Source: Candidatus Woesearchaeota archaeon (GTDB taxonomy: Archaea > Nanobdellota > Nanobdellia > Woesearchaeales > ARS49). From it: DNA of 64,000 nucleotides. A program made the translations under genes and the position numbers. This document shows positions 3,929-46,269 of this stretch, in pieces (position 1 is the first letter of the stretch; each line of letters begins with the position of its first letter). The stretch is taken from assembly GCA_014729505.1 (NCBI GenBank), contig WJJS01000001.1, positions 12,938 through 76,937 of the forward strand, written 5' to 3'. The notes under the pieces are model-generated. The model searched no databases, had not been told where the DNA came from, and was given only the letters and a program-made list of their open reading frames with translations.

Positions 3929-6550
3929 TCAGTATTTCCTGAACAGCTTCACGATTTCGCCGAAAATCAAAACACTGGACGCTACAGCAGCAGCAATCAT
4001 CCAATCCATAAATGAAAGCGGAATCGTCTCAAAAAGAGTATTGAAAATACCAAGATGCACACTTGCAATTTGCAAACCAAAACTGAGCAACACCGCACCA
4101 ATCAACCATTTGTTAGACCATAACCCTACCGTAAAAATTGATTTCGTCTCAGAACGCTGATTAAGCACGTTAAACAACTGGAAAAGAACCAAGGTAGTAA
4201 AAGCCATCGTTTGCGCATATGTTTTATTCACCTCAGGCTCGTACCATTCAAACACAAAAAGAGTGCCAGCCATCATCAAAAGGCCAATAAACAACATAAG
4301 ACCTGCCCTGCTCTTGTTAACAATCTTTTCATCAATATCGCGAGGCTTTCGCTCCATAACTCCCGGTTCTTTAGGATCAACACTTAAACTCGTCGCAGGC
4401 AATAAATCAGTGGCAAGATTAATCCACAAAATCTGTCTTGCAGTTAACGGATCAATAAGGCCGAGAAGCGTTGCCACAAAAATAGTCAAAATCTCGCCGA
4501 CATTGCTTGATAACAAGTATATGACAAACTTCTTGATGTTATCATAAATAACGCGACCTTCTTCAACTGCACGAACAATAGTTGCAAAATTATCATCGGC
4601 AAGAATCATATCGCTGGCCTGACGAGAAACATCAGTACCAGTGATACCCATTGCAATGCCAAGATCAGCCTTCTTTAAAGCAGGAGCATCATTAGCACCG
4701 TCACCCGTCATAGCAACAATATGCCTGTTCTTACGCAGTGCATCGACAATATGCAGTTTATCCTCTGGATTAACACGGGCATAAATACTAATCTTTTCAA
4801 CATCACGCGAAAGATTGATAGACTCAAGCTCTACACCCTCAATAGCCCTGCCCTCAAGACCAATCTGTTTACCAATCGCTTTAGCAGTACCGAGATGATC
4901 GCCAGTAATCATCACCACCTTGATACCTGCAGCATTGCACGTCTTAATTGCTTTTTTAACCTCCTCTCGAGGAGGGTCAATCATGCCCTGCAACCCAATA
5001 AAGATCATGCTCTTTTCAATATCATCATGACTCAATTCATCCTTGAACTCCTTATAACAAAAACCAAGAACGCGCAAAGCCTGACTGGTAAATTCATCAT
5101 TTGTTTCAAGAATATGATCCCGATCCTCTTTAGTCAGCCGACGAACCTTTCCATCAACCAACATATGAGTACAAAAACCAAGCACCACTTCAGGAGCGCC
5201 CTTCGTATACGCCGTCTTCTTACCTTCAAAAGTGGAATGAATCGTCGTCATACACTTGCGTTCAGAACTAAAATCGATTTCATCAACGCGCGTATTATCA
5301 GAACGCACCTTGTCAAGATCAATACCTGACTTTGCTGCACTGACCAATAAAGCACCTTCAGTAGGGTCACCGACAATACTATGACGGCCCTGCTCCACAT
5401 CAAGCTGGGCATTATTGTTCAACACTCCTGCACGCAATAACGTATCAAGAGAGGATGTCTCTTTGGAAAAATCACCCTTTGGTTCATAACCAGAACCAGT
5501 TACCTGAACCACCTGTCCATCAACATACAGTTTTTTAACAGTCATCTCGTTATGCGTCAGCGTACCCGTTTTATCGGTACAAATCACCGTACACGCGCCC
5601 AGCGTTTCAACACTTGGAAGCTTGCGCATCAACGCCTTCTTCTTAGCCATGCGCTGCACGCCAAGAGCAAAAGCAATAGTAACCACTGCAGGCAAACCCT
5701 CAGGAATAGCAGCGACTGCAAGGGCAACAGCCTTTTCAAACACTTCAAGAAGATTTTTACCCAACAACACATCAACGCCAATCATCACCATAGCGATCAA
5801 GACCACCGCAGCAGTAAGCTGATATGCCAGTTTCTTGAGATCCTTTTGTATCGGCGTGGGCTCGCTTTTTGTCTTTTTGAGCATAGTTGCAATCTTACCG
5901 ATCTCAGTACGCATGCCAGTAGAAGTGACAACCGCCTTGCCGTGACCGGCAGTAACTGTCGTGCCAGAAAACACCATATTCTTCTGATCACCAATAGACA
6001 AACGATCAGCAATTCTCTTCACATCCTTTTTAACAGGAACAGATTCCCCGGTCAAAGCCGCTTCCTGCGTTTGCACATTCACCGCATCAATAAGACGAGC
6101 ATCTGCAGGCACAATATTACCTGTCTCCAGCACAATAATATCGCCCTTCACCACTTCTTCAGCAGGAATTTCGCGCCGACGACCATCACGAATAACAATG
6201 GCCTTAGGACTCACCATCTTACGCAATGCTTCAATAGATTCCTCGGCCTTATACTCCTGCCAAAAACCAAACAACGCATTAGCAATAACAACAATTGTAA
6301 TAACGTAAAAATCAATAAACTCTTGTAAAAACAAAGAAATACCCATCGCTGCCAAGAGAATCCAGACAAGAGGACTTGTAAACTGATGCAAGAAGATCAC
6401 AAACGGACTTATCTTCTTTTCACGCTCAAGAGCATTTTTACCAAACTTTTGCAAACGCTCCTTAGCCTGAGATTGTGATAATCCTTCCTTAGAAGAAGCA
6501 ACCTTATCAAATACCTTCTCCAAAGGCAGTTGATACCACTCTTTTTCCAT
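3929..6550 (-). CDS. P-type cation-transporting ATPase, type IIA (Ca2+ pump, PacL/SERCA-like)
   Basis: 873-aa ORF with ALTGESVPV (TGES), [10 protein letters not shown] phosphorylation site, MITGDH and [20 protein letters not shown]. Confidence 0.9.
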
Positions 6551-17517: not shown

Positions 17518-17605
17518 AGTCTCTTTTTTATTGCAGGAAAAAGTTCAAAGTTATAAACTTTTCAGCGACAATTTTTTAAAGAATCCGATGAAAAAGCATC
17601 CGTAC

Positions 17606-17700
17606 GGGCCGGTAGCTCAACCTGGTAGAGTGCTCCGTTGCGATGCTTTCGCCCATCGACAGCGAGGTCCGATCTCACTTGCGTGAGATCCGACAGTTTT
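17606..17700 (+). ncRNA. Truncated tRNA-Ala 5' copy (35 nt, positions 1-34) fused to a conserved two-hairpin element, then a T4 run
   Basis: 17606-17640 is identical to 17730-17764. 17641-17696 holds CGATG-N8-CATCG and GTCCGATCTCAC-TTGC-GTGAGATCCGAC. The element recurs at 20047-20108 and partly at 22438-22462. An A/T-rich TATA-like box lies at 17573-17580. Confidence 0.6.
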
Positions 17701-17729
17701 ATGAATAGGTGTTTTTAGTATACGTTTAT

Positions 17730-17803
17730 GGGCCGGTAGCTCAACCTGGTAGAGTGCTCCGTTGGCTTCGGAGAGGCTGCGGGTTCAAATCCCGCTCGGT
17801 CCA
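17730..17803 (+). tRNA. tRNA-Ala (anticodon GGC), no intron
   Basis: Hand-folded cloverleaf: acceptor GGGCCGG/TCGGTCC with G3:U70, D arm GCTC..GAGT, anticodon arm CTCCG-TTGGCTT-CGGAG, T arm GCGGG-TTCAAAT-CCCGC, discriminator A. Confidence 0.85.
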
Positions 17804-17857: not shown

Positions 17858-17879
17858 AGAGGCTGCGGGTTCAAATCCC
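17858..17879 (+). repeat. Orphan internal tRNA-Ala fragment (positions about 42-63)
   Basis: AGAGGCTGCGGGTTCAAATCCC is identical to 17772-17793 of the intact gene, and the flanks differ. It is followed by the hairpin GAAACTGC-TCGC-GCAGTTTC and a T6 run. Confidence 0.7.
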
Positions 17880-20032: not shown

Positions 20033-20108
20033 GGTGGCGGAGTGGCATATTCCGATGTTTTCCGCCATCGACACGGAGGTCCGATCTCGCTTGCGCGAGA
20101 TCCGACGG
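20033..20108 (+). ncRNA. Truncated tRNA-Met 5' copy (14 nt) fused to the conserved two-hairpin element
   Basis: GGTGGCGGAGTGGC (20033-20046) repeats 20133-20146. The element at 20047-20108 has hairpins CGATG-N8-CATCG and GTCCGATCTCGC-TTGC-GCGAGATCCGAC. Confidence 0.6.
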
Positions 20109-20135
20109 TAGTCAAGTAACACGAGTATCATTGGT

Positions 20136-20253
20136 GGCGGAGTGGCTTAGCCTGGTTAGAGCACCGCGCTCATAGGTCATACCTTTGAGCACTGAGCTTT
20201 CGAGCTATGACGAAGAAACGCGGGGGTCACGAGTTCAAATCTCGTCTCCGCCA
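20136..20253 (+). tRNA. tRNA-Met/Ile2-type (anticodon CAT) with a 43-nt canonical intron (37/38)
   Basis: Acceptor GGCGGAG/CTCCGCC, anticodon arm CCGCG-CTCATA[intron]A-CGCGG, T arm ACGAG-TTCAAAT-CTCGT, discriminator A, T6 run after. G1:C72 argues against an initiator. Confidence 0.8.
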
Positions 20254-20396
20254 CTTTTTTATGGTGGGTGAGTGTAAGCGAACCCTCCTTTTTTTTCACA
20301 TTTTTCTCAAAAATTTGGTTTATTTTTTTGTCTTTGCCACTTTTTTTGTGCTGTTGAGCGTTAGCGAGGCGCACTTGTCATTTCACAGTACCATGC

Positions 20397-22355: not shown

Positions 22356-22413
22356 AAGAAAACCACGTTCAAATCCGTAAACTTCTTAACTGGGGCATTT
22401 TATGTGCATATAT

Positions 22414-22462
22414 GCCGACGTCGCATACTCTGCGTATCGATGTTTTCCGCCATCGACACGGA
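22414..22462 (+). repeat. Truncated tRNA-Ser 5' copy (14 nt) followed by a partial copy of the conserved element
   Basis: GCCGACGTCGCATA matches the first 14 nt of the tRNA-Ser at 22756. 22438-22462 (CGATGTTTTCCGCCATCGACACGGA) is identical to 20053-20077. The second hairpin is absent. Confidence 0.6.
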
Positions 22463-22539
22463 CGCGCGGCATTCGCTATTGCTCAGCCCCGCAAGACACA
22501 AATCTTAAAAGGCAGTTCCTTTGTTACTCACTTATTCTT

Positions 22540-22718
22540 GCCGACGTCGCATAATCTGGTACGCTAAAAAACGCATTAGCGTTTTTGGCGCGCCGAAAAG
22601 CTTTGCTTTTCTCGCGTTGCGCCGGTCTTGAAAACCGGTTCCCTTGGGTGCTCGAAAATCTGCGATTTTCGGCACGTACAAAAGCTGACGCTTTTGTCCG
22701 TATCCCGTTTCAAATCCG
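22540..22718 (+). pseudogene. tRNA-Ser(TGA)-like copy with two large insertions/introns and no 3' acceptor strand
   Basis: Matches 22756-22818 except for a 55-nt insertion in the D loop (22562-22616) and a 52-nt insertion at the variable-arm/T-stem junction (22650-22701). The T arm is degenerate (CCCGT) and the sequence diverges after AAATCCG. Confidence 0.55.
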
Positions 22719-22755
22719 TAAACTTCTTAACTAGTGGCATTTCATGCGCATATAT

Positions 22756-22837
22756 GCCGACGTCGCATAATCTGGTATTGCGCCGGTCTTGAAAACCGGT
22801 TCCCTTGGGTATCCCGGTTCAAATCCGGGCGTCGGCG
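22756..22837 (+). tRNA. tRNA-Ser (anticodon TGA), no intron
   Basis: Acceptor GCCGACG/CGTCGGC, anticodon arm CCGGT-CTTGAAA-ACCGG, long variable arm TTCCCTTGGGTAT, T arm CCCGG-TTCAAAT-CCGGG, discriminator G. Confidence 0.85.
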
Positions 22838-22891
22838 TTTCTATGACGCGAAAGCGTCATCCCATTTTTGAAGTAGTGATTTGAACCGGGG
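22833..22891. repeat. 59-nt direct repeat, left copy (starts in the last 5 nt of tRNA-Ser)
   Basis: CGGCGTTTCTATGACGCGAAAGCGTCATCCCATTTTTGAAGTAGTGATTTGAACCGGGG is identical to 23751-23809. Confidence 0.9.
22843..22869 (+). terminator. Hairpin ATGACGC-GAAA-GCGTCAT plus T5 run after tRNA-Ser
   Basis: Perfect 7-bp stem and T-run. It lies inside the 59-nt direct repeat, so it recurs at 23761-23787. Confidence 0.5.
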
Positions 22892-23068
22892 CCAGTCAAG
22901 CTTTGCTTGACGTTGTCCTGGTTTCAAATCCGGGCGTCGGCGTTGTGGGCGCGTTAGCGCTCTTTTTTGTTGTTGTGATTTGAACCGGGGCCAGTCAAGC
23001 TTTGCTTGACGTTGTCCTGGTTTCAAATCCGGGTGTCGGCGTTGTGGGCGCGTTAGCGCTCTTTTTTT
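22876..23068 (+). repeat. Two tandem 99-nt units, each holding an inverted T-arm copy, a hairpin, a tRNA-Ser 3'-end-like segment and a hairpin + T-run
   Basis: Units start at 22876 and 22975, with one mismatch in about 90 nt. Each contains GATTTGAACCGGGG (reverse complement of the T arm) and CCTGGTTTCAAATCCGGG(C/T)GTCGGCG. Confidence 0.85.
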
Positions 23069-23135
23069 GATTGCTGCATCATTTCGAATCTAAACCATAA
23101 CCTTTATAAACTATGGCCACTATAGTAACTATAGT

Positions 23136-23336
23136 ATGCCAACAACTATCCAACTCAGCAAAGAAACCAAGAAGCTAATAAGCACGTTTGGTTCCAAAGA
23201 AGATACTTACGACACGATAATTAGAAGACTGTACAAATTAGCTGTTAAGGAGCAACTGAAAGAATTCTTGCTCTCATCAGAAGGAACAATGCCGATAGAT
23301 GAGGCGATTAAGAAAGCCAAGAAAAAATGGCAATAG
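23136..23336 (+). CDS. Putative type II antitoxin (archaeal VapB/DUF217-like)
   Basis: 66-aa ORF. TIQLSKETKKLISTFGSKEDTYDTIIRRL matches the short archaeal antitoxin pattern. It overlaps the downstream gene by 10 nt. Confidence 0.5.
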   Translation: MPTTIQLSKETKKLISTFGSKEDTYDTIIRRLYKLAVKEQLKEFLLSSEGTMPIDEAIKKAKKKWQ

Positions 23337-23668
23337 TAGAGATTACGAAAACACTCTATGAACAGATAGATCGAAAATTCAAAGGAAAAAGTGTCAAAGT
23401 ATTACAACATTTGAAATCATTAGAAGAATCGCCAAAGAAAGGAAAACTCCTAGGAACCATAGGAGGAATAGTGATTAAAGAAGTAAAGTATGAAGGTTTC
23501 AGATTTTATTTCATCACCGACGGATTCAAACTCAAATATACCTCCTCTGAAGATCTTACCGACTTACTTTTGCGGGTTGTAAGAATGTCAGATAAGAAAC
23601 ATCAGCAACAGACTATCGACGAGATCAAACAGATTCTACTAACCATCGGTGTTGAAGGTTTGACTTGA
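23327..23668 (+). CDS. Putative RelE/ParE-fold toxin
   Basis: 113-aa ORF. LKSLEESPKKGKLLGTIGGIVIKEVKYEGFRFYFITDG fits the RelE-like core pattern, and the gene is coupled to the upstream small gene. Confidence 0.45.
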   Translation: MAIVEITKTLYEQIDRKFKGKSVKVLQHLKSLEESPKKGKLLGTIGGIVIKEVKYEGFRFYFITDGFKLKYTSSEDLTDLLLRVVRMSDKKHQQQTIDEIKQILLTIGVEGLT

Positions 23669-23750
23669 TAGCCTTCCTTGGCTTGATGTAATGCAAACCG
23701 CATGCACAGGTAAAAAATAACTCAAAAGAAGCCCAGAACCAACCATACAC

Positions 23751-23809
23751 CGGCGTTTCTATGACGCGAAAGCGTCATCCCATTTTTGAAGTAGTGATTT
23801 GAACCGGGG
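23751..23809. repeat. 59-nt direct repeat, right copy
   Basis: Identical to 22833-22891. Confidence 0.9.
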
Positions 23810-23854
23810 ATCTTTGCTTGGCAGTATGCTGATGAAAATACGGCGTTTCAAGAA

Positions 23855-33807: not shown

Positions 33808-33917
33808 ACTAATCCCCCGTGTATACCATCACTATCACTTTCTTTTAAACGTTTCGTCTGCCCATGCAATGCAAAGACAATAATAAAGTTTATAGCAAAC
33901 GTCATGTTCTTACCAGT

Positions 33918-35107
33918 ATGCGCGTTTTTGAAAGAGGGGAACTGAGACTCTTATGGCCGTTTTATGCCGATTATCTACTATCACAACTACTCTTTTTTGC
34001 ACCAGCGTTTTACATCGTGTATTTTCTGGATATTGGCCTGTCCTTGTTTCAGTTAGGACTTGTTATGGCTGCAGCACCACTGGCAGGTCTGCTCTTTGAG
34101 ATTCCAACAGGAGCCGTAGCAGATCTGTACGGGAGAAAATTTTCAGTCCTGCTAAGCTTTCTACTGGTAGCAGCAGGTTATTTGCTTCTCTTCTTCTTTA
34201 CAAGTATCCCAGCACTTATTGCCATTTTTGCGTTAATCGGATTTGCAGGAACATTCTGGTCGGGAGCAAAAGATGCGTGGGTTGTTGATCTTATAGGAAA
34301 AAGAAAAACATTACTCCAAATTATTTTGCAAAAGCAGATTTTCTCAGCAGTCTTGGACTAGTCATATCAGGCATCCTTGGAGCGTTCATTGTTGAAGTCA
34401 TTGGCCTACGATCCATATGGTTATTTGCTGCAGGTGCGTACGCGATATCATTTGTAGTTCTACTCACAGCCCCTGAACGTTATCGCAGACGACACACTTC
34501 ATTTAGTCGAGCTCTTAAAACTGTAACACAACAAAGCGGGGATGCGTTACGATACTGTCGAATGCACCACATACTTTACGCATTTTTCATTGCAAGCGCT
34601 CTTTGGCTTATCGCAGGAGCAATAGGAGGAGTCATGGCATGGACACCCTTTCTTATCGAACTTGGTTTTGCAGAACAACACTTTGGCTACTTGTGGAGTG
34701 CGATGGCCGTAGTACAAATGATGGGACTTGCCATCTCACAATTCGCTCTAAAAACGATCTCGTCTCGAAAAGTGATCATTGTTGCCCAGTCATTGTTTGC
34801 TGCAACTCTCCTTGCCGTGTATTGGGTATCTTCACTGCCGTTTGCGTTGTTACTGGTACTGTTTAGCATCTTATTTGCCTCAGCAAAAGCACCTTCATTA
34901 AACGTGTTCTTTCATCGGTTTACTCCTTCATACATGAGAGCAACCATCGGTTCAGTCAAGGCAACACTCGGCGCAGCTATAGCCATACTCATGATGCCGA
35001 TTTCAGGACATTTTATTGACACTATAGGTGCTCAAAACGCATTATTTAGCGCGGGACTTGCATTACTGCCTGCAGTAGGGATATACCTGCTAATGAAAGA
35101 ACACTAA
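33918..35107 (+). pseudogene. MFS transporter interrupted by a frameshift near 34298-34321 (or a sequencing error)
   Basis: ORF 33864-34361 (TM1-4, ADLYGRKF) and ORF 34562-35107 (TM7-12) join if the reading frame shifts in the A5-G-A5 tract. The other frame then reads KNITPNYFAKADFLSSLGLVISGILG and continues. Confidence 0.6.
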
Positions 35108-40009: not shown

Positions 40010-40324
40010 ATGGGACATACCGTATGGAGCCAACGGATGAATGCAGAGCGCATCATCACAGAACTACTTCGTTACAAGAAAGCATTGCGAAGCGAACAAC
40101 AAGCACTGTTTGACGAATTACTGAAACGATCCATGAATCATCTCGGTACCATAAGTTACGCAAACAGCATGCACACCTGGGCATTACTGCTCTTATCAAT
40201 ACTACTAGAACAAGAACAACGCATAAAGAAACTAGAACATGTGGTTAATAGATACCTATCAAAAAAAGAACAAGATCGTCGTGTGGCTGAAAACGAAAAC
40301 GACGAATATGCATCGAACCTATGA
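40010..40324 (+). CDS. Hypothetical helical protein
   Basis: 104-aa ORF, 3 nt after the previous gene. Its last 86 nt overlap the polymerase start in another frame. Confidence 0.4.
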   Translation: MGHTVWSQRMNAERIITELLRYKKALRSEQQALFDELLKRSMNHLGTISYANSMHTWALLLLSILLEQEQRIKKLEHVVNRYLSKKEQDRRVAENENDEYASNL

Positions 40325-42794
40325 GTACTCTGTCACACTCTACGCACACGAAGATGCACGAGAATTCCTTACAACGAACAAGATTGCTTTTACAGAACAA
40401 CTCAAAAAAGATCCTTTTCGCAACAAGAAACATGTTCTTGCCATAACGTTATCATGCGAACGACTCGCACCATTTGTAAGATGGTTTGAACTCGGCACCA
40501 AACACCGCATACCGCTTTACAATGCAGATATCACGCCGGAACAACGCTTTCTTTACGAGAACAAGCTAGTACCGTGCAGCAACGTGCGAGACGTTGATGG
40601 GAGACTTGTACACGTCAACGAATCCGCACCACCGCTAAGCACTGTTCATTTGCGATGCGCCACACAAGGACCTATTACACGATTAGAATACCAGGATCAC
40701 ACTATCGTAGGCGAGGAACGAGAAGTACTCGCGCATTTTACGCAACGCTTCAGACAGGACGATCCAGATGTACTACTTATGCGACGAGCATACAAAGCAG
40801 TACCACATCTCTTTGAACGGTTACGTGCGAACGGATTGCACGTGCCTTTTCATCGATGGGATGAGATACCGCTGCGCCACCGCGGCGGCAAGACACACTT
40901 CAGTTACGGAAGAGTATATTATCAAGATCACTCGTTTCAACTGCGAGGACGATTACTCGTTGACACGGCAAGCAGTGTAGGATCAACATGCTCTGTACCT
41001 GCAATCATCGAACTTGCACAGCTCACAGGCACTCGATTCCAACGCGTAGCAGCACGCAGTTTCGGTGCCTCATTTCAACTTCAACTCGTCAAAGAACTGC
41101 TCGCCCAAGATCTGCTTGTGCCATACAAGGAAAAACCCTTTGATGAACCGCTGCGCATGACAGAGTTATTCGACGCAGACAGAGCAGGACATACCTTTGA
41201 TCCTCAACTAGGATTTCACAATGATGTTGTAGCAATAGACTTCTCAAGCATGTATCCATGGATCATCCACAACTACAACATCAGCGCAGATACCATACTC
41301 ACAAAAAAAGGAAAGAAGACCAAGATTCCTGCAGTACCAATTGATGTAACCACACAATATCAAGGAGTGATACCAAAAGCAATCAAACCATTGTTAGATC
41401 GACGCATGTACTACAAAAAACATCCGACGCCGGAAAACAAACGACGAGCAATAGGACTAAAAACACTGCTCGTGACCTGTTATGGTTATCTGCGATTTCG
41501 CGAATTTAAAATGGGACTTGCCACATCACACATGGCAATTTGTTCATACGCGCGAGAACTCCTCCTACAATCAGCAACGCTTGCAGAAGAACAAGGCTTT
41601 CGCGTCATTCACGGCATCATCGATTCACTCTACATATCAAAAAAAGACATTACCACAACAGAAGTCGAAACATTTCGAAAAGAACTAGAACACATGAGCG
41701 GTATACCCGTTGCCTGCGATGGCATCTTCAAATGGATCGTGTTTCTTTCACGACGACATGACAACACTGTCGGAGTGCCGGCCCGTTATTTTGGCGCATA
41801 TAAAAATGGTGGCATTAAAGCAAGAGGTATTGAAGTACGACAATCGAGTGCGCCGCTACTTATACGACGATTCCAACAAAACGTGTTAGAAGAGCTCGCA
41901 GCGTTTTCAACGAAAAGAGCGATACAGGATCACTTGCCACAAGTCATGAAACGCGCACGAGCAGTCCTGCACGATCTGCCTGCGACGCCACGAGAAGAAC
42001 TGTGTTGCAGAATACGCATCAGTAAGACCACGTATTCTCGAAACATTCCACAACGGCAAGTGATACGCTTGTTAACACAACAAGGGAGAGACATTATCGC
42101 TGGACAGGTCATACGGTTCTGGTACAGTGCGAATGGACCGTTACTAGTCGATATGACTGGAAGGCCAGACTACAAAAAATATCGCGATTTGTTATTACGC
42201 GCAATACACTCAGTGTACCAGCCTTTCGGTTATACTACCAAACAACTACAACACCTCCTATTAGACGAATATCAAAGCGTTCTGCAAGATTTTGCGCGAC
42301 AACAGATCCGCTACGAATACGTGCCTATGAAAAAACACTATGCACAAAAACGAGGACTGTCAGAGAGAATCCTGCGACAACGACTGGAACGACAAGGATG
42401 GACGGTGTGGCGCGGCGGCAGCATACATATTACTCGTTATGAAGAACTGTATCCCAACGTACGACGAAAGTACGAATTACTCATCCGTCTGCTTGACGAT
42501 CATAAGCCAGACACAAAAGAAATACTGCAATATTATTGCATGATACAGCACGGCATGCCAGATTTTCTCTGCTACAAAAATGGACGATTCAAATTTGTTG
42601 AATGCAAATTGCAATACGAGCAATTAAGTCATCGACAAAAACGCTGCATTATGAAGCTACAAGACCTGGGATTTGATGTGGAAGTTCACAAACTCGTTGA
42701 CAAACGCACAAAAATGAGAGAGGCACTAGTTGACATGTTTACCAATTGCAAAATAGTACGAGAACGACAACTAGCCCTACTCTCAACATGGTGA
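40239..42794 (+). CDS. Family-B DNA polymerase lacking recognisable exonuclease motifs, fused to a C-terminal VRR-NUC nuclease domain
   Basis: 851-aa ORF. Pol motifs: A VAIDFSSMYPW (D334), B KTLLVTCYGYL (K408), C HGIIDSLY (D462). No DxE, NxxxFD or YxxxD at the expected sites. The C-terminus (from about aa 700) reads ERQGWTVWR...GMPDFLCYKNGRFKFVECKLQYEQLSHRQKRCIMKLQDLGFDVEVH. Confidence 0.85.
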   Translation: MWLIDTYQKKNKIVVWLKTKTTNMHRTYEYSVTLYAHEDAREFLTTNKIAFTEQLKKDPFRNKKHVLAITLSCERLAPFVRWFELGTKHRIPLYNADITPEQRFLYENKLVPCSNVRDVDGRLVHVNESAPPLSTVHLRCATQGPITRLEYQDHTIVGEEREVLAHFTQRFRQDDPDVLLMRRAYKAVPHLFERLRANGLHVPFHRWDEIPLRHRGGKTHFSYGRVYYQDHSFQLRGRLLVDTASSVGSTCSVPAIIELAQLTGTRFQRVAARSFGASFQLQLVKELLAQDLLVPYKEKPFDEPLRMTELFDADRAGHTFDPQLGFHNDVVAIDFSSMYPWIIHNYNISADTILTKKGKKTKIPAVPIDVTTQYQGVIPKAIKPLLDRRMYYKKHPTPENKRRAIGLKTLLVTCYGYLRFREFKMGLATSHMAICSYARELLLQSATLAEEQGFRVIHGIIDSLYISKKDITTTEVETFRKELEHMSGIPVACDGIFKWIVFLSRRHDNTVGVPARYFGAYKNGGIKARGIEVRQSSAPLLIRRFQQNVLEELAAFSTKRAIQDHLPQVMKRARAVLHDLPATPREELCCRIRISKTTYSRNIPQRQVIRLLTQQGRDIIAGQVIRFWYSANGPLLVDMTGRPDYKKYRDLLLRAIHSVYQPFGYTTKQLQHLLLDEYQSVLQDFARQQIRYEYVPMKKHYAQKRGLSERILRQRLERQGWTVWRGGSIHITRYEELYPNVRRKYELLIRLLDDHKPDTKEILQYYCMIQHGMPDFLCYKNGRFKFVECKLQYEQLSHRQKRCIMKLQDLGFDVEVHKLVDKRTKMREALVDMFTNCKIVRERQLALLSTW

Positions 42795-46024: not shown

Positions 46025-46106
46025 TCCCCGCCCCCGGACTCAGCGTTAACCTGCGGTTAACTGGCTGCAGAAAACACTTCGTGTTTTTGCAGTGAACCAG
46101 GAACCT
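46025..46106 (-). repeat. Partial second copy of the tRNA-Tyr 3' portion (variable loop to 3' end) with a 52-nt insertion in the T loop
   Basis: Minus strand reads AGGTTCCTGGTTCA[52 nt, two hairpins]AGTCCGGGGGCGGGGA. It is preceded by TGAACCAGG, the reverse complement of the T arm. Confidence 0.65.
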
Positions 46107-46145
46107 GGTTCAAGCCTTGTAAGATATTGTTTCCAAAAAGAAAAG

Positions 46146-46269
46146 TCCCCGCCCCCGGACTTGAACCAGGAACCTCGCGGTGACGGCTGACTCGCCTTCA
46201 CGTCTCGAGCGTTGCTCGGAATCAGTTGAGTTTCTACAGCCGCGCGCTCTACCATTGAGCTAGGCGGGG
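46146..46269 (-). tRNA. tRNA-Tyr (anticodon GTA) with a 52-nt canonical intron
   Basis: Acceptor CCCCGCC/GGCGGGG (the C1:G72 archaeal Tyr identity pair), anticodon arm CGCGG-CTGTAG[52]A-CCGCG, T arm CCTGG-TTCAAGT-CCGGG, discriminator A. Confidence 0.85.

Follow-up and report, generated by a model that had tools for sequence, protein, structure and literature searches.

Why should the 5' ends of three different tRNA genes each be present twice, and why should much the same short sequence be fused to the displaced copy in every case? The question is raised by a stretch of 64,000 nucleotides (nt) from Candidatus Woesearchaeota archaeon (assembly GCA_014729505.1, contig WJJS01000001.1, positions 12,938 to 76,937), referred to here as the window, in which genes for tRNA-Ala, tRNA-Met and tRNA-Ser are preceded by a fragment of their own 5' part followed by an element consisting of a 25-nt core and a hairpin. 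With confidence only a little better than even, we take this element to be the conserved 5' module, or head, of mobile tRNA introns that form a family in Woesearchaeota/Nanobdellota and are of the bulge-helix-bulge (BHB) type.

The origin of archaeal tRNA introns, their shift to non-canonical positions and their relation to split and fragmented tRNAs form an old open question, on which prior evidence has come mostly from intron similarity in Thermoproteales and from one Caldiarchaeum locus. The element described here occurs in three states, namely as a working intron, as a module joined to displaced exon pieces, and in orthologous sites that are empty or differently occupied. A mechanism of intron gain thereby becomes testable.

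The element at three tRNA genes

At the tRNA-Ala, tRNA-Met and tRNA-Ser genes (loci A, B and C; Table 1) the shared core reads CGATG(Y)TTTC(SS)CCATCGACA(SS)GA and is followed by a second hairpin. The original prediction had proposed a conserved element at these three places, and the counts bear this out. The core pattern CGATGYTTTCSSCCATCGACA occurs three times in the window and the consensus of hairpin 2 twice, each against 0.00 expected, and a covariance model of the core finds these three copies only (38-44 bits; the next match scores 10.5).

The duplications of tRNA 5' ends proved real at locus A and at locus B, where GGTGGCGGAGTGGC returns at 20133-20146, exactly 100 nt downstream. The tRNA-Ala fragment consists of three leader nucleotides and the first 35 nt of the gene, ending at the first anticodon base. 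At locus C the predicted spacing of 126 nt stood and the predicted length of 14 nt did not: TGCCGACGTCGCATA lies at 22413, 22539 and 22755 (spacings 126 and 216), but the supposed spacer CTCTGCGTAT is a diverged ATCTG-GTAT (2 of 2000 shuffles score as well). The tRNA-Ser fragment is thus about 24 nt long and lies within a 73-nt diverged duplicate, 22365-22437, which differs by about 8%, promoter included, from the block at 22706-22778 before the intact gene. By the same shuffling the fragment clearly extends up to the 25-mer at tRNA-Ser, and such an extension is only suggested at the other loci (114-628 of 2000 shuffles score as well).

Copy C had been thought to be cut after 25 nt. Instead it continues with cgcgcggcATTCGCTATTGCTCAgccccgc, a hairpin 2 of the common type, the one that most other genomes show (for example GTGGATTTCGCTATTGCTCAAGTCCAC in locus L009, described below).

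Hairpin 1 is CGATG/CATCG, to which the commonest core variant adds a sixth G:C pair. Covariation is silent on this hairpin because it never varies. In hairpin 2, the reported compensatory change between copies A and B (CTCAC/GTGAG versus CTCGC/GCGAG; A:T to G:C) is present. The outer stem of the common hairpin 2 is compensatory at four of five pairs (GTGGG/CCCAC, ATGAG/CTCAT, GTGGA/TCCAC, AGGGG/CCCCT), its internal loop, TTTC/TCAAG, does not vary, and the inner stem measures 1-5 bp. The type II hairpin 2 of window copies A and B is a different hairpin, to which that of L007 is similar by eye. Of the core variants (A, B and G), A and B each occur both with the type II hairpin 2 and with the common one, and G occurs with the common one and with another type; since variants and types reassort in this way amongst copies, the copies must exchange segments. 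The core of copy A is identical to those of L001 and L006/L010.

A pairing of the element with the attached tRNA fragment to form an acceptor-like minihelix had also been suggested. It holds for copy B, where core nucleotides 8-17 are complementary to GGTGGCGGAG of the Met fragment and form a 15-bp hairpin (z = -4.1). In copy A it amounts to 4 bp, and by eye no such pairing is present in copy C or in other genomes. Variant B departs from the other variants at C11 and G12, and these two nucleotides make positions 8-17 fully complementary, with G:U, to GGTGGCGGAG, which is the tRNA-Met leader and 5' end. By a rough estimate the chance of such complementarity is about 0.004; variant B beside the tRNA-Ser fragment has no such partner.

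We give next to no credence to the idea that each copy is a tRNA pseudogene with an internal deletion and a trailer common to all, as the original prediction had offered amongst its alternatives, or that the copies resemble each other by chance. The TCCGCCA of variant B does equal the tRNA-Met 3' end, and the TCGCCCA of variant A resembles that of tRNA-Ala. However, the real trailers of the three tRNAs lack TCGACA, variant B is also joined to a tRNA-Ser fragment, and the commonest variant (TCGTCCA) stands unchanged beside many different tRNAs. Elsewhere the module is the head of an intron. Chance similarity is excluded by the counts of core and hairpin 2 given above.

Several other readings of the core were tried and rejected. 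An H-type pseudoknot within the 25-mer would pair loop nucleotides 8-12 with nucleotides 22-26 and is compensatory between A and B (GC/GC versus CG/CG), but the case for it is weak because the commonest variant carries a U:C mismatch. As a coding start (M-[VLF]-S-[SPA]-I-D-[ST]-E) the core differences would all be synonymous or conservative, but the loop lengths of hairpin 2 shift the frame, its nucleotides are kept despite these shifts, and no long open reading frame (ORF) begins there at any of the 13 loci described below. A hammerhead-like antisense reading, with CGAAAC motifs and GUC, lacks the CUGAUGA half, the third stem and an Rfam hit. Kink-turn, box C/D and H/ACA readings failed on consensus by eye: the element shows no CUGA or UGAUGA, and its ACA follows a plain 6-bp hairpin without a pocket. 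That the element is no known RNA family was borne out by Rfam, which returned only tRNA hits at the gathering score in the window and related loci and nothing relevant at E <= 5 in the window. A full-text literature search for the core sequence found no match.

The same module as an intron

Further copies were sought with the pattern CGATGNTTTCNNCCATCGACANNGA, exact at 20 positions, in species-representative genomes and Joint Genome Institute (JGI) metagenomes. The scan returned 13 archaeal element-bearing loci, and its other hits, in bacterial coding DNA, are chance matches. L002/L014, L006/L010 and L009/L015 are pairs of the same or orthologous loci, which leaves 10 distinct places in at least eight genomes with G+C contents of 30%-62%. 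A covariance search of the window and about 250 kb of related loci added only L003a (one mismatch) and orthologues in L022-L024 and L027.

In three of these loci (L009, L015 and L027) the element is an intron at position 37/38 of tRNA-Ser(CGA), and the Rfam tRNA model aligns with the gene end to end (L009 2802-2959, L015 893-1050, L027 4180-4337; 158 nt; 40.4 bits). As a BHB we required 3-nt bulges and a 4-bp central helix at both splice sites. The L009-type gene contains a strict BHB, gccggt-CTCG-aa/c-GATGG on the 5' side and TGAG-tt/a-accgg on the 3' side (solidus, splice site), and from this placement the first intron nucleotide is C1 of the 25-mer. In L006 (CAZFEG010000007.1; also sampled as L010 and L022-L024) the element is a T-loop intron of a three-intron tRNA-Arg(CCU), assembled by hand, with the BHB TTCA-aa/a-CGATGC ... 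TGAA-ag/t-ccccc. The BHB scan gave H 4/4, h 6 bp and h' 2 bp for L009/L015, and H 4/4, h 5 bp and h' 0 bp for L006, where the role of h' would fall to hairpin 1. A further intron is probable in L008, whose contig is too short for certainty.

Sense copies within tRNAs have three properties in common. The 25-mer starts at the bulge of the 5' splice site or 1 nt after it, four nucleotides near the 3' end of the intron pair with the four exon nucleotides preceding the 5' bulge, and the tRNA left once the element is removed is normal. Close to the 3' end of the intron a short segment can also pair with CGATG (AUCG in L009, UAUC in L006, CAUUG in L008), so hairpin 1 and the long-range h' helix may alternate. 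Hairpin 1 could act as the outer helix (h') beside the 5' bulge for the splicing endonuclease, and the strict conservation of the 25-mer would point to a further, putative partner that recognises the sequence, be it a mobility factor or a protein of the host.

The window copies fail as spliceable introns, since behind each of them come the 5' exon once more, complete, and the entire tRNA. When the window copies were scanned for a BHB, A and B yielded nothing beyond non-productive hits at chance level and C yielded no hit, and productive splicing of the upstream fragment to the downstream gene was rejected because no BHB supports it. We infer that these copies are not introns and that they mark spots at which a tRNA 5' segment bearing the element stayed behind, with the ancestral promoter on one side and a complete gene on the other. 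The same architecture is found in L001 and L004, in which a displaced, partly diverged 5' fragment is followed by the element, 25-35 nt and a complete multi-intron tRNA.

At locus B the displaced fragment occupies the former gene start. A promoter block, AAAACCTTTAAAA with CTTCTCG.AT, is common to the window and to L017, the nearest syntenic relative, with equal spacing to the tRNA start, and in the window it sits upstream of the displaced fragment and not of the intact gene. No T-run lies between the element and the intact gene. From this arrangement of promoter and T-runs, fragment and element are probably co-transcribed as a 5' leader of about 100 nt of pre-tRNA-Met, which would need to be removed, presumably by the host's tRNA 5' end maturation.

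L003 and L007 present the opposite arrangement, an inverted element downstream of a complete tRNA that abuts a displaced 3' fragment starting in the T-loop (GTTCG...); in L003 there are two tandem units of about 127 nt. Sense copies after 5' fragments and antisense copies before 3' fragments would be complementary kinds, and the hosts are DPANN relatives of Nanoarchaeum. One might therefore suppose that the copies are split tRNA halves, a 5' fragment with the sense element being trans-spliced to an antisense element with a 3' fragment. We find this hardly credible. Intact genes for the same tRNAs stand beside each fragment, the fragments (11-35 nt at the 5' side and about 21 nt at the 3' side) fall short of one tRNA, and the window holds no antisense core. 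The exact-pattern scan found a single locus and no sense copy in each of the L003 and L007 genomes, although a copy diverged at a fixed position would escape it. Split tRNA genes are known in Nanoarchaeum equitans and Caldivirga. There, as here, a 5' piece leads directly into non-tRNA sequence able to form a helix by the splice-site bulge, and a DPANN host is involved; the window differs in having no partner half, an intact gene alongside, and the same appended sequence for different tRNAs rather than a pair-specific one.

One copy, L002, stands alone between the genes for LeuRS and a HAD hydrolase; an A/T-rich box precedes it by about 20 nt. This copy bears on the main rival to the mobile-intron reading, that the element is a small functional RNA gene which makes use of tRNA transcription units, being made as a released and probably circular intron, as a 5' leader, or from its own promoter; the fragments would be captured promoter-proximal pieces and the 25-mer a binding core. 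We consider this unlikely, and note that both readings could be true together. The core is identical in L002, L003, L004, L007, L008 and L009 although host G+C content ranges from 30% to 62%, and the sequence beyond the core follows the composition of the host. Amongst three related genomes the intron differs at four positions, none within the 25-mer. L002 has its upstream box and no tRNA fragment, there are one to three copies per genome, and splicing would put the 5' end of the RNA exactly at the 25-mer. The box C/D small RNAs that archaeal tRNA-Trp and tRNA-Met introns carry offer a precedent. These observations are offset by others. The L002, L003 and L007 copies are antisense to local transcription. 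The element is patchy amongst Woesearchaeota species and absent in L017, L018, L025 and L026. Hairpin 2 falls into two or more unrelated types, and in L003 none is convincing. Neither box C/D nor H/ACA motifs by eye nor an Rfam hit suggest a function, and the conservation is in part a by-product of the exact-pattern search. The expressed RNA put forward by the original prediction finds some favour, for a function of its own, in the stand-alone copy and the invariant 25-mer, but its minihelix fold is not general.

As to the hosts, L003 and L007 are labelled Woesearchaeota, and the ThrRS of L015 groups with Woesearchaeota/Nanobdellota proteins. The contigs of L001, L002 and L006 come from metagenome-assembled genomes (MAGs) labelled 'uncultured Methanosarcinales archaeon', and L001 and L006 carry multi-intron tRNAs. 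The GatE of L006 nevertheless groups with Woesearchaeota/Nanobdellota, with 62% identity to the closest named protein, a Woesearchaeota one, which rules out for L006 a spread across phyla to Methanosarcinales. The label looks like mis-binning or mis-assignment, with GatE of L006 as the one case tested. Because of the L006 GatE and L015 ThrRS groupings we claim no cross-phylum spread: the hosts are Woesearchaeota/Nanobdellota, and the family has so far been seen only there.

Mobility and what the displaced pieces may record

We return to the reading of the element as the head of a mobile intron family. Two lines of evidence speak for movement. Firstly, the element occupies at least 10 sites, in the D-loop, D-arm, anticodon loop and T-loop of different tRNAs and once between genes, in both orientations. 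Secondly, orthologous sites differ. In L017 (DHODH 56% identical) the order HAD-HIT-tRNA-Met-DHODH-tRNA-Ser is the same as in the window, and its tRNA-Met and tRNA-Ser have ordinary promoters and neither fragment nor element. In L018 (GatE 71% identical) the gene orthologous to the tRNA-Arg of L006 has its T-loop site occupied by an intron of 95 nt that is unrelated to the element, and the D-loop intron is missing. From the many sites, both orientations, and the empty or otherwise occupied orthologous sites, we conclude that the element moves as DNA. L025 and L026 are relatives of L015 (ThrRS identity 75%) and lack synteny with it at the tRNA-Ser locus.

Eight fragment-type copies, at seven loci in five genomes, have the 25-mer directly against the displaced fragment and their far end turned toward the intact gene. 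The duplicated stretch mostly spans the insertion point to a few nucleotides short of the gene end, although at tRNA-Met it may extend about 8 nt past the gene end, and at tRNA-Ser the repeat common to the intact copy includes the promoter. The mobile element that the original prediction had envisaged, one that targets tRNA genes and leaves duplicated tRNA segments, comes nearest to what was found but has to be revised. Its supposed specificity for 5' regions does not hold, in view of the D-, anticodon- and T-loop sites and the two orientations, the duplications are not of fixed length, and several genomes carry the element in a spliceable intron form.

A number of observations weigh against our reading. 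The duplications measure 13, 14, 24, 38 and about 21 nt and some are diverged, so their length is not fixed and they are not fixed-length target-site duplications; intron-type copies have no flanking duplication at all. Copy number is low (one to three per genome), unlike that of typical miniature inverted-repeat transposable elements (MITEs). No integrase, transposase, reverse transcriptase or Cas1 was found by Pfam amongst the 58 window ORFs of at least 110 aa, no terminal inverted repeats were seen by eye, and no inverted repeat brackets a window copy. With only three core haplotypes, covariation for hairpin 1 or a pseudoknot is nil to weak. Part of the invariance of the 25-mer, finally, is a selection effect, because the scan demanded an exact match at 20 positions.

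A DNA transposon or MITE was rejected for want of terminal inverted repeats (by eye the ends of the inserts are unrelated) and of fixed-length duplications. A casposon was rejected since there is no Cas1 in the window and no inverted repeats, and a PolB-like ORF (40239-42794) lies 20 kb away, unlinked to any copy. Casposons insert at tRNA gene ends with fixed 14-15 bp duplications mostly outside the tRNA, and have terminal inverted repeats, Cas1 and PolB (PMC6977970). The likeness lies in tRNA gene insertion with duplications of about 14 bp, whereas those of the window are 13-38 nt and inside the tRNA.

A further explanation would make the copies junction scars of larger integrative elements, such as plasmids, viruses or gene cassettes, that recombined with tRNA genes and carried a replacement tRNA segment, the 25-mer being the element end and the rest having been deleted. 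We regard this as distinctly improbable. It draws on the direct tRNA-segment repeats that flank every insert, in the manner of an att scar, and on the cassette hosted by tRNA-Ser, in which 60-nt repeats (22832-22891/23750-23810) surround a DUF7557-type two-gene module; a DUF7557/ParE pair also lies near the element-bearing tRNA-Ser of L027. There is moreover a precedent in Caldiarchaeum subterraneum tRNA-Thr(GGU), where a 5' fragment lies upstream of the complete gene, the insert brought a new 5' part, and the event was linked to intron gain (PMC3293823; Sugahara et al., 2012). The window, however, shows the flanking repeats without the recombinase or the longer element of such a scar. None of the 13 loci adjoins an integrase or has a long insert between fragment and tRNA, the ORFs of loci outside the window having been listed with no family scan, and the intervals are 86-126 nt. 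An exact scan for the core pattern in viral contigs gave 0 hits, and blastn with a self-composed 70-nt query (G-type core and common hairpin 2) against plasmid and phage records gave chance hits to Sphingomonadaceae plasmids or none. Arm sites of integrases do not as a rule stay unchanged over 25 nt in hosts whose G+C content spans 30-62%, and the same module acts as a spliceable intron.

For the mobile intron head that we prefer, the following course of events may be envisaged. The element would insert as DNA into tRNA loops. A sense insertion able to form a BHB would be tolerated as an intron. Other insertions would persist only where a complete gene was restored alongside, which would leave the junction of exon and 25-mer; the complete copy might arise if the exon stretch running from the insertion point to the end of the gene were duplicated, or if the disrupted copy were replaced in situ. 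The window units may in this way show how archaeal tRNA introns are gained.

More tentatively, and as a suggestion that we would not yet back at even odds, the element could be the archaeal counterpart of an introner: a small non-autonomous DNA element that enters tRNA loops, becomes a new intron if in sense and BHB-capable, and otherwise survives only with its exon segment duplicated or its gene copy replaced. The window units would then be the first sequence-level footprints of archaeal tRNA intron gain, and the 25-mer a site for a mobility factor or a hairpin for single-strand recombination. Eukaryotic introners are transposon-derived introns (PMC11782384). Both are repeated DNA elements whose insertion makes an intron removed by host machinery, and introners differ in spliceosomal instead of BHB splicing, high copy number, and defined target-site duplications that supply splice sites.

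Mobile BHB introns, and tRNA fragments left by insertions, are already known. What is new here is a DPANN family whose 25-nt head is invariant and lies exactly at the splice site, and one module that serves as intron, leader insert, inverted downstream insert and solo copy. Transposing BHB introns in Thermoproteales tRNA genes were reportedly described by Fujishima and colleagues in 2010 in Mol Biol Evol. These resemble the present family in that near-identical introns occur at different, often non-canonical sites (D-, anticodon and T-loop) of different tRNAs and are excised by the host splicing endonuclease via a BHB. The present family differs in its DPANN hosts, in the short invariant 25-nt head exactly at the 5' splice site, and in its copies outside introns, which are joined to displaced exon fragments in both orientations or, in one case, stand alone. 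Such non-intron copies could record the insertion event itself. Box C/D small RNAs are encoded in archaeal tRNA-Trp and tRNA-Met introns and are likewise conserved structured RNAs inside a tRNA intron, but the present element by eye has no C, D, C' or D' boxes and no kink-turn consensus, and it has no Rfam hit. The Caldiarchaeum locus shares with the window a tRNA 5' fragment upstream of a complete gene for the same tRNA. Its insert is 1.8 kb long and encodes a putative recombinase (PMC3293823), whereas the window inserts are 86-126 nt, without a gene, and begin with the module that is an intron head elsewhere.

The tRNA loci and other features of the window

The features of the three loci are collected in Table 1.

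Table 1. Coordinates of the element copies, tRNA genes and tRNA pieces
Feature	Position	Strand	Remark
Locus A: displaced tRNA-Ala(GGC) 5' part	17603-17640	+	38 nt, 97% identical to 17727-17764, spacing 124
Locus A: 25-nt core variant A (CGATGCTTTCGCCCATCGACAGCGA), hairpin 1 CGATG/CATCG	17641-17665	+	covariance model 44 bits
Locus A: hairpin 2 type II (8 bp, C:C mismatch, 3 bp, TTGC loop; fold -20.7 kcal/mol, z = -2.4), T-run behind it	17667-17694	+	
Locus A: intact tRNA-Ala(GGC)	17730-17803	+	57.5 bits
Locus A: partial internal tRNA-Ala copy (variable loop to T-loop, 22 nt)	17858-17879	+	100% identical
Locus B: displaced tRNA-Met 5' end, leader GGT and nt 1-11 (GGTGGCGGAGTGGC)	20033-20046	+	
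Locus B: 25-nt core variant B (CGATGTTTTCCGCCATCGACACGGA)	20053-20077	+	covariance model 42.8 bits
Locus B: hairpin 2 type II, one compensatory pair relative to copy A	20079-20106	+	
Locus B: intact tRNA-Met(CAU), 44-45-nt anticodon-loop intron unrelated to the element	20136-20253	+	55 bits
Locus C: older duplicate block (T-loop remnant, promoter, tRNA-Ser nt 1-24)	22365-22437	+	fragment proper 22414-22437
Locus C: 25-nt core variant B, identical to locus B copy	22438-22462	+	covariance model 38.4 bits
Locus C: hairpin 2 of common type (ATTCGC-TATT-GCTCAG core), cgcgcggcATTCGCTATTGCTCAgccccgc	22463-22492	+	comparison with L009, L001, L004
Locus C: second superseded tRNA-Ser copy, two intron-like insertions	22539-22718	+	
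Locus C: intact tRNA-Ser(UGA)	22755-22838	+	58.5 bits
Partial 3' tRNA copies	window 17858-17879, 20330-20367; L017 1943-1958, about 4170-4255; L004 about 70 nt past its tRNA		

The tRNA-Ser locus is a stack of superseded copies, in which fragment and element are followed by a truncated copy and then by promoter and intact gene. The truncated copy carries insertions of 55 nt after nucleotide 23 or thereabouts and of 51 nt before the T-arm, the first of which shares its position with the element in the upstream Ser fragment. It stops in the T-loop (TTCAAATCCG), exactly where the promoter block of the intact gene starts, and this T-loop motif is found ahead of the other promoter block as well, at 22368. 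Downstream of the intact gene there are two 99-nt units with 3' fragments, and an integrated two-gene cassette between 60-nt repeats. Each repeat comprises the tRNA-Ser 3' end, a trailer hairpin, a T-run and an inverted T-arm piece. Besides the 99-nt tandem units, the repeats (22832-23810) enclose ORFs at 23136-23336 (a weak DUF7557 hit) and 23327-23668 (no family), and the whole resembles a small cassette of toxin-antitoxin type that integrated at the 3' end of tRNA-Ser. Genes for a DUF7557 protein and a ParE toxin are also present in L027, some 1 kb away from the tRNA-Ser(CGA) that bears the element.

The intron of the window tRNA-Met is of a type also present in L017. A block gagcactgagctttcgagc[tg]atga is kept in both of these distant genomes (20178-20222 in the window, 1790-1830 in L017); with its CTGA and ATGA motifs it is like the box C/D guide of archaeal tRNA-Met introns, and Rfam makes no call.

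Partial 3' tRNA copies lie 86-105 nt downstream of every tRNA at the three element loci. That of tRNA-Ala is 86 nt downstream of its counterpart, and identity stops sharply past the T-loop. More widely, such copies occur 70-115 nt downstream of the gene, often with their own T-run, in several Woesearchaeota, the syntenic relative included. Because each resembles the tRNA of its own genome and not the orthologue, they must form recurrently or undergo gene conversion. A second copy of a T-arm and 3' end at 46025-46108 on the minus strand lies downstream of an intron-containing tRNA (46146-46269, minus strand). Its T-loop is split (ggttca/.../agtccggg) by a 52-nt two-hairpin insertion unrelated to the 25-mer, and it is another superseded 3' piece carrying an intron-like insert.

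Since Woesearchaeota tRNA loci are patched together from pieces of superseded genes, tRNA finders overlook genes there or call them wrongly. Rfam finds four tRNAs in the window, two with introns, and ARAGORN only two of the four; at seven of 11 related loci ARAGORN called no gene, and intron-bearing tRNAs were missed at several.

The window is otherwise core archaeal chromosome, encoding GluRS, EF1A, EF2, RNA polymerase subunits, ribosomal proteins and a thermosome subunit. The dihydroorotate dehydrogenase (DHODH) encoded there has 100% identity with an NCBI protein from a Candidatus Woesearchaeota archaeon. The 851-aa ORF at 40239-42794 (plus strand), 3.4 kb from the tRNA at 46146-46269, has a weak family-B DNA polymerase match (E = 7e-14), no exonuclease-domain hit and a VRR-NUC nuclease domain at its C-terminus; it may be a divergent polymerase of the host or what is left of a self-replicating mobile element. 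Two adjacent ORFs on the plus strand, 33864-34361 and 34562-35107, match the N- and C-terminal halves of one MFS transporter, representing either a split or frameshifted gene or an assembly error.

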